Positions 2,886-2,991 of a stretch of DNA of 2,991 bases are shown here, piece after piece. Position 1 is the first letter of the stretch. Each line of letters starts with the position of its first letter. Below the pieces are notes generated by a model. That model had not been told where the DNA came from. It was given only the letters and a program-made list of their open reading frames with translations, and searched no databases. The position numbers and the translations under genes were made by a program. Origin of the DNA: Escherichia coli (GTDB lineage: Bacteria > Pseudomonadota > Gammaproteobacteria > Enterobacterales > Enterobacteriaceae); the NCBI RefSeq assembly GCF_003334335.1, contig NZ_QOWQ01000087.1. The stretch is one strand, 5' to 3'.

Positions 2886-2938
2886 TTTCTGGTGACGTTT
2901 GGCGGTATCAGTTTTACTCCGTGACTGCTCTGCCACCC
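2886..2938 (+). ncRNA. dicF: DicF small RNA homologue (prophage-encoded ftsZ-targeting sRNA), with its T-run immediately downstream
   Basis: Sequence tttctggtgacgtttggcggtatcagttttactccgtgactgctctgccaccc matches the 53-nt E. coli K-12 DicF as I remember it at 52 of 53 positions (K-12 ...ctgccgccc, here ...ctgccaccc), followed by ttttt. Genomic context fits the Qin order dicA - ydfABC - dicF - dicB: a repressor and small ORFs upstream on the same strand. Confidence 0.7.
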
Positions 2939-2991
2939 TTTTTAAAGTGAATTTTGTGATGCGGTGAATGCGGCTATGCGCACGCGGAACA

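Follow-up and report, generated by a model that had tools for sequence, protein, structure and literature searches.

What does a single unexpected base mean in a small-RNA gene that is in every other respect ordinary, and how did it get there? The gene is dicF, which lies close to the end of a 2,991-nt stretch of Escherichia coli DNA (hereafter the window, by which we mean the whole stretch analysed). DicF, a small RNA of prophages that has been studied in detail, prevents cells from dividing and affects virulence genes in pathogenic E. coli. Positions 2887–2938 (+) are a full-length match to the Rfam family RF00039 (model positions 1–52 of 52; 70.1 bits against a gathering score of 48 bits; E = 1e-14), the sole Rfam match above threshold in the window, and the 53-nt gene as defined in K-12 begins one T earlier, at 2886. 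Inside dicF, alignment with the K-12 Qin locus (L002) reveals a lone difference, an A for G at 2935, the next differences between the two sequences falling downstream of the gene at 2962 and 2976–2977. When the sequence is laid on the Rfam consensus structure, 10 of the 11 consensus pairs are standard, and the sole exception is the pair between model positions C17 and A49, which are C2903 and A2935 of the window. The initial annotation, which took a K-12 sequence as its reference, had described this as a DicF homologue at 2886–2938 with one G-to-A change in its 3' stem that creates a C/A mismatch in the pairing with GGCGG (2901–2905). That description holds in every part, and the reference sequence used is indeed that of K-12 dicF. 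Model score, structure, prophage context and predicted complementarity to ftsZ all agree on membership in the DicF family, and window 2886–2938 is a genuine, ordinary DicF gene and no new kind of element.

The layout of the gene follows that of its K-12 counterpart closely. The 5' region (2886–2900, +) is single-stranded in both the Rfam consensus and our folds and carries the canonical seed UUUCUGGUGACGUUU, unchanged from K-12; the 5' end of DicF is its xylR pairing region (PMC5069750). Next comes the 5' arm of the outer terminator stem, GGCGGUA (2901–2907, +), delimited from the Rfam structure and pair counts, with C2903 facing the changed base. An inner helix of 4 bp (2909–2912 with 2924–2927) closes an 11-nt loop (2913–2923), and this whole element (2909–2927, +) is the same as in K-12; the loop, which contains the anti-Shine-Dalgarno motif ACUCC, is a predicted partner of the ftsZ ribosome-binding site. 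The 3' arm of the outer stem, UGCCACC (2931–2937, +), is placed by the Rfam structure, the alignment and the fold, and holds the A2935 that replaces the K-12 G. The U tract of the intrinsic terminator, TTTTT at 2939–2943 (+), can be read directly from the sequence. The likeness to the K-12 Qin DicF (RF00039) therefore extends over 52 of 53 bases and takes in the seed, the loop, the U tract, the predicted pairing with the ftsZ ribosome-binding site and the operon position upstream of dicB; what differs is G49A and a hairpin that is predicted to be weaker.

The surroundings are those of a prophage immunity region. The window is 100% identical to positions 1193953–1196943 (minus strand) of the chromosome of E. 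coli JE86-ST05 (NZ_AP022815.1), as well as to three related assemblies, and the JE86-ST05 copy belongs to a lambdoid prophage integrated beside yccA. According to RefSeq annotation and open reading frames, the window begins with the start only of a DnaT-like replication gene (−), followed by a YdaT-family gene (272–697, −), a cro-like regulator (681–962, −) and a repressor-like gene (1063–1482, +). Upstream of dicF in its operon lie a ydfA-like DUF1391 gene (1747–1899, +) and a hypothetical gene (1911–2312, +), both taken from the annotation of NZ_AP022815.1. RefSeq places the start of dicB 187 nt after dicF, 135 nt beyond the end of the window, and past that end dicB is accompanied by a DUF1482 gene, an exonuclease gene and an integrase. 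The order ydfA-like gene, hypothetical gene, dicF, dicB is the same layout as that of the ydfABC-dicF-dicB operon of the K-12 Qin prophage, whereas the prophage itself is a different mosaic from Qin, beside yccA and with its own repressor, cro and integrase.

The motif TACC-N4-GGTA occurs six times in the window against 0.7 expected, a count that none of 200 shuffles reached. Three of the sites (992–1003, 1016–1027 and 1031–1042, together spanning 992–1042) lie between the divergent cro-like and repressor-like genes, and two more (1525–1536 and 1550–1561) are contained in a feature at 1525–1561 that forms a perfect 16-bp palindrome a short way before the ydfA-like gene. These sites look like prophage repressor operators in an arrangement resembling that of OR and OL/dicBp, and the palindrome is likely to be the repressor operator of the promoter that drives dicF, by analogy with the control of dicBp by DicA (PMC10448788). 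T-rich stretches also follow the palindrome on both strands, and our scan makes a terminator-like call there in both directions, such that the element may serve both as the end of the repressor-gene transcript and as an operator.

Several other features of the region deserve mention. Three copies of GTCGTGACAT/GCCGTGACAT lie at 16–67 within the 5' end of the DnaT-like replication gene (−), with more GTGAC words nearby, and resemble the origin iterons found inside a lambda O-type gene. A 94-aa reading frame at 2272–2556 (−) overlaps the 3' end of the 1911–2312 gene, and a shortened form of this frame is listed in RefSeq as a hypothetical protein (14272–14502 of the window locus, L001). The spacer between dicF and dicB has a match to Rfam STnc100 below the gathering score of 47, at 36.8 bits in L001 (14936–15158, which is window 2936 onward and mostly past the window end) and at 32.7 bits in L137 (2397–2600, −). 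In some prophages (L003, 3622–4590; L186, 3623–4591) a gene for a Rha-family regulator interrupts the beginning of dicB, leaving an 84-nt dicB fragment that is followed by a second, intact dicB. Finally, dicF is annotated as a feature in none of the listed matching RefSeq genomes of E. coli, K-12 derivatives included; the record of phage Tritos (OV696610.1) does annotate DicF.

Much of what this gene would be expected to do can be taken from K-12, where RNase E makes the 5' end of the 53-nt DicF (PMC10448788), the roughly 53-nt species results from that cleavage together with termination and is Hfq-dependent (PMC10448788; PMC5069750), and a 1,146-nt ydfABC-dicF transcript has been seen alongside a longer one that reads through into dicB (PMC10448788). 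Antisense action on ftsZ has been proven experimentally for the K-12 allele (PMC5069750). By analogy, a promoter under repressor control, ahead of the ydfA-like gene, would drive the dicF of the window. RNase E would cut the operon transcript to give DicF its 5' end, and the 3' end of DicF would form at its own hairpin and U tract with some read-through into dicB; with Hfq, the product would then pair with ftsZ and other mRNAs.

How common is the A at position 49? With a 57-nt query, dicF was found in 3988 of 5426 complete E. coli genomes, and the exact window allele in nine of those 3988 carriers (0.2%) as well as in four IMG/VR contigs; among 3978 matching records, 3055 have the K-12 allele exactly. 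The nine genomes have origins that include Japan, Switzerland, China and Ecuador (both the mainland and the Galápagos), and the label O157:H7 appears in none of their nine records. Carriers outside the clonal-looking JE86/UCPROB group have it in prophages that differ in their cro, repressor, replication and integrase genes, and overall the allele is present in at least six distinct prophage backgrounds. Because it recurs in different backgrounds in this way, the A49 allele is real and circulating. JE86-ST05 has three places that match the 57-nt query, much like the multi-copy dicF of enterohaemorrhagic strains, in which several lambdoid prophages per genome give four copies in Sakai and 86-24 (PMC7873438; PMC5069750). 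In the collection of sequenced phages, only canonical dicF was found (mEp460, Tritos, PPompW and others), with no hybrid and no close second-lineage copy.

That position 49 is a paired position is borne out by natural variation. We gathered dicF copies from IMG/VR by three pattern scans and reduced the matches listed to 21 distinct alleles, a sample that is pattern-drawn since the scan patterns fix parts of the dicF sequence. Among these, the pair 17–49 is C–G in 13 alleles, U–A in five, U–G in one and unpaired in two, namely the C/A allele of the window and a C/U allele; the five U–A alleles all come from one lineage and count as one compensatory event rather than five. Across the same 21 alleles from the matches listed, 99.1% of stem cells on the Rfam structure are standard pairs, and stem changes elsewhere stay paired, with G–U at 16–50 and 18–48 and with the U–G at 20–46 becoming either C–G or U–A. 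Pair 17–49 is thus supported by covariation. The proposal that position 2935 belongs to a stem, which the initial annotation had left to such an analysis, is therefore upheld in the alleles listed. A scan of one-genome-per-species contigs for TTTGGNGGNATCAGNTTTACTC returned seven stretches where about two chance matches are expected, of which one is a real dicF (the same allele as L125) and six are from unrelated taxa; as E. coli is not among the seven, the scan provides no cross-species covariation. Two further alleles have weak stems of their own: the C/U allele (L013, L084) is a second mismatch allele at pair 17–49 with a stem of −12.0 kcal/mol, and a double-wobble allele, GGUGG with CUGCC (L055, L176–L180), folds at −11.1 kcal/mol.

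The U–A alleles lead to a second form of DicF. Of the IMG/VR matches listed, 43 loci lack G at position 49, and 37 of these have one sequence in common, CCAUGUGUAGUCUUUGGUGGCAUCAGUUCUACUCCGUGACUGCUCUGCCACCC. This second lineage is present in 207 of the 5426 complete E. coli genomes (~4%). Its 5' region is CCAUGUGUAGUC and its stem GGUGGC/GCCACC with the compensated pair U17–A49; relative to canonical DicF the first 12 nt differ, as do positions 17 (U), 20 (C), 28 (C) and 49 (A), and the C at 20 forms a C20–G46 pair. Against the Rfam DicF model it reaches 61.1 bits, all its pairs being standard, and its hairpin is predicted to fold in the same register as that of K-12 at −15.8 versus −15.9 kcal/mol. 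The second lineage has a 14-nt gap immediately ahead of the mature 5' end, at the place of GCCCTCTGTTATCA in canonical dicF, and it occupies the same slot, between the ydfA-like gene and dicB; examples are L137 2591–2642 (−) and L186 3501–3558, with 35 other IMG/VR loci alike. From model position 29 to the 3' end, A49 included, it is identical to the dicF of the window, in some loci for at least 1.6 kb downstream as well, and it is distinguished from it by the other 5' 12 nt and by U17 and C20, which give it a fully paired stem. This form may be processed differently at its 5' end and may act on other targets than canonical DicF. The lineage appears to be new and undescribed, as a literature search, which did not take in the main EHEC dicF study, returned no description either of it or of the window allele. 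With a canonical seed, neither the compensated U17/A49 nor the U17/G49 single change was encountered among the 5426 complete genomes.

With both lineages in view, the origin of the A can be addressed. We consider the odd base to be the scar of a recombination between two DicF lineages, left in a functional-looking prophage dicF, and would give this reading a probability of about 85%; it appears to be new. Within the gene, the window allele is canonical at model positions 1–12, 17, 20 and 28 and of the second lineage at 49. From −110 to +30 relative to dicF, the window matches canonical loci without a difference and is distant from those of the second lineage. In the upstream direction, canonical loci match best once hybrids are set aside, differing for the first time 169 nt away, and second-lineage loci mismatch at once. 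On the other side, going outward from model position 28, the window locus (L001) is identical to the second-lineage locus L163 over all 1600 nt compared; in the best canonical loci, the first mismatch is at position 49 itself and three mismatches accumulate within 61–86 nt. The 140-nt downstream haplotype of the window is shared by 12 of 35 second-lineage loci and by none of 111 canonical loci among the matches listed. The corresponding downstream type, again among the matches listed, is found in 7 of 10 hybrids, 22 of 36 second-lineage loci and one of 119 canonical-G loci, which over the loci listed gives Fisher p values of 9e-9 for hybrid versus canonical and 0.72 for hybrid versus second lineage, although these values overstate the evidence in that loci from related strains are not independent.

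Another hybrid has the same construction, as L003 diverges from the second-lineage locus L186 as far as position 28, after which the two have about two differences across 1270 nt. The reciprocal product, a second-lineage 5' part joined to G49 and thus having a U17–G49 wobble (−15.4 kcal/mol), is present in two IMG/VR loci and in no complete E. coli genome searched. As canonical markers extend up to 2914 and the second-lineage state begins at 2935, the junction is placed in window 2915–2934 (+), 20 nt common to both lineages, on the basis of markers 17, 20, 28 and 49 and of the flank identities; the latter also point to 2935–2991 (+) as the start of a second-lineage-derived segment that runs beyond the window through dicB. 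The canonical lineage with C17–G49 and the second lineage with U17–A49 occupy one slot in mosaic prophages, and in the course of events we propose, a crossover in the 20 shared bases between model positions 28 and 49 would join a canonical 5' part (C17) to a second-lineage 3' part (A49), so that the chimera would inherit half of each co-adapted pair and with it an uncompensated C/A mismatch. Of the possibilities raised in the initial annotation, that of a variant from a different DicF copy was the closer one, and needs to be amended in that the second lineage would have contributed the gene's 3' portion together with 1.6 kb or more of downstream sequence, through recombination inside the gene.

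It could be argued that a G-to-A transition simply arose de novo in a canonical dicF and agrees with the second-lineage base by coincidence. Transitions are the commonest mutations, the C/U49 allele shows that position 49 can mutate alone, and canonical G49 genes that already have the same downstream haplotype do exist, if at low frequency (99.0% for JNE132847 and two more, 98% for the UTAK-1 type). Nevertheless, such an origin requires three things to agree by chance, namely the base, the site and the linkage to a flank identical to the second lineage for at least 1.6 kb; on the rare background that combines canonical upstream with this downstream sequence, an A is present in 7 of 12 full-length matches of at least 98% identity, and both parents and the reciprocal product exist. 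We therefore regard a de novo origin as unlikely, and A49 is most likely no fresh point mutation.

What would the mismatch do to the RNA? By nearest-neighbour folding, the K-12 hairpin has an energy of −15.9 kcal/mol, and the window hairpin is predicted to fold best at −12.4 kcal/mol after a two-base shift of register (UGGCGG with CUGCCA), which leaves CCC between the stem and the U tract; in the unshifted register, where it has a 1x1 internal loop, it is predicted at −10.5 kcal/mol. The folds thus support a weaker stem, and the effects on termination, stability and Hfq-dependent function that the initial annotation had considered possible are predictions. Counted from its base, the terminator stem has the mismatch at its third pair, and we infer a loss of about 3.5–5.4 kcal/mol for this hairpin, which serves as terminator and as Hfq-binding element. 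In intrinsic terminators and Hfq-binding small RNAs, a mismatch near the stem base should cut termination and the amount of correctly ended RNA and raise read-through, and a protonated A+·C wobble could make the real stem stronger than predicted. A simple consensus terminator scan calls the dicF hairpin in neither the window nor K-12, as its loop and inner helix exceed the limits of the scan, which hence cannot compare the two alleles. The changed base is also predicted to bear on target pairing: the duplex with ftsZ positions −29 to +25 is predicted at −33.2 kcal/mol for the window allele versus −38.5 for the K-12 allele, the prediction joins G49 to ftsZ C-26 within a terminal 4-bp helix, and the predicted net cofold energies with ftsZ are −14.2 kcal/mol for K-12, −11.5 for the window allele and −9.1 for the second lineage. 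Taken together, these models suggest that termination efficiency and DicF yield are probably lower and read-through into dicB greater, with function not abolished, because the 5' seed and loop are unchanged from K-12, complementarity to ftsZ is intact and equally weak natural alleles exist. Indeed, a stem as weak as this one may be fully adequate, given the double-wobble allele and its −11.1 kcal/mol.

An altered balance of this kind could in principle be what maintains the mismatch, with selection acting on a leakier dicF terminator that raises expression of dicB and later genes, or on a 3' region opened to targets. In keeping with such a benefit, K-12 transcripts reach dicB by reading through dicF (PMC10448788), six or more prophage backgrounds, sampled in several countries, have retained the allele, and the 3' arm of the allele is predicted to be more open. 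Its occurrence in 0.2% of dicF-bearing genomes, however, reveals no spread beyond that of a neutral or slightly harmful allele produced by recombination, the two parental hairpins are both near −15.8 kcal/mol, which argues for selection on a strong stem, and predicted binding to ftsZ drops rather than rises. Maintenance by selection is in our opinion improbable.

Still less credible is the notion that the C/A allele is no hybrid at all and instead an intermediate on the way from C–G to U–A, ancestral to the second lineage. The change from C–G to U–A must pass through either C/A or U–G, and both states are found in nature. An old form, though, should have diverged from both lineages, whereas on one side of the junction the window is identical to canonical loci of today and on the other, where 1600 nt contain 0 mismatches, to second-lineage loci of today, and its allele is without the remaining second-lineage markers (1–12, 20 and 28); on account of these flank identities and missing markers we reject this very unlikely alternative. 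A sequencing or assembly error has almost no chance of being the cause and is likewise rejected, as the same 57-nt allele occurs with differing flanks in nine complete genomes from independent projects and in four IMG/VR contigs, and nothing was found in its favour.

Recombination between the two DicF lineages thus remains our preferred account, and it is tempting to place it in a wider frame. The arrangement might represent a natural 'hybrid incompatibility' in which two matched lineages of equal hairpin energy are brought together by mosaic recombination to yield a rare mismatched chimera, and in which the second lineage would regulate other targets while keeping its ftsZ-binding loop; we put this forward tentatively, as something rather less than an even prospect.

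The allele itself adds no new mechanism, and it belongs to an ordinary gene; what sets it apart is that it is rare and chimeric, with a mildly interesting history. It does provide a clean natural example of how the stem pairs of a small RNA co-evolve and of how prophage recombination can break them, the broken form staying rare (0.2% of carriers) and both matched forms keeping the same hairpin stability. Nature also supplies a set of mutants at this one pair, C–G, U–A, U–G, C/A and C/U, with which terminator strength could be tested against DicF yield and read-through into dicB. Beyond the single base, the second lineage points to a form of DicF, carried by ~4% of complete E. coli genomes, with a possibly different regulon.
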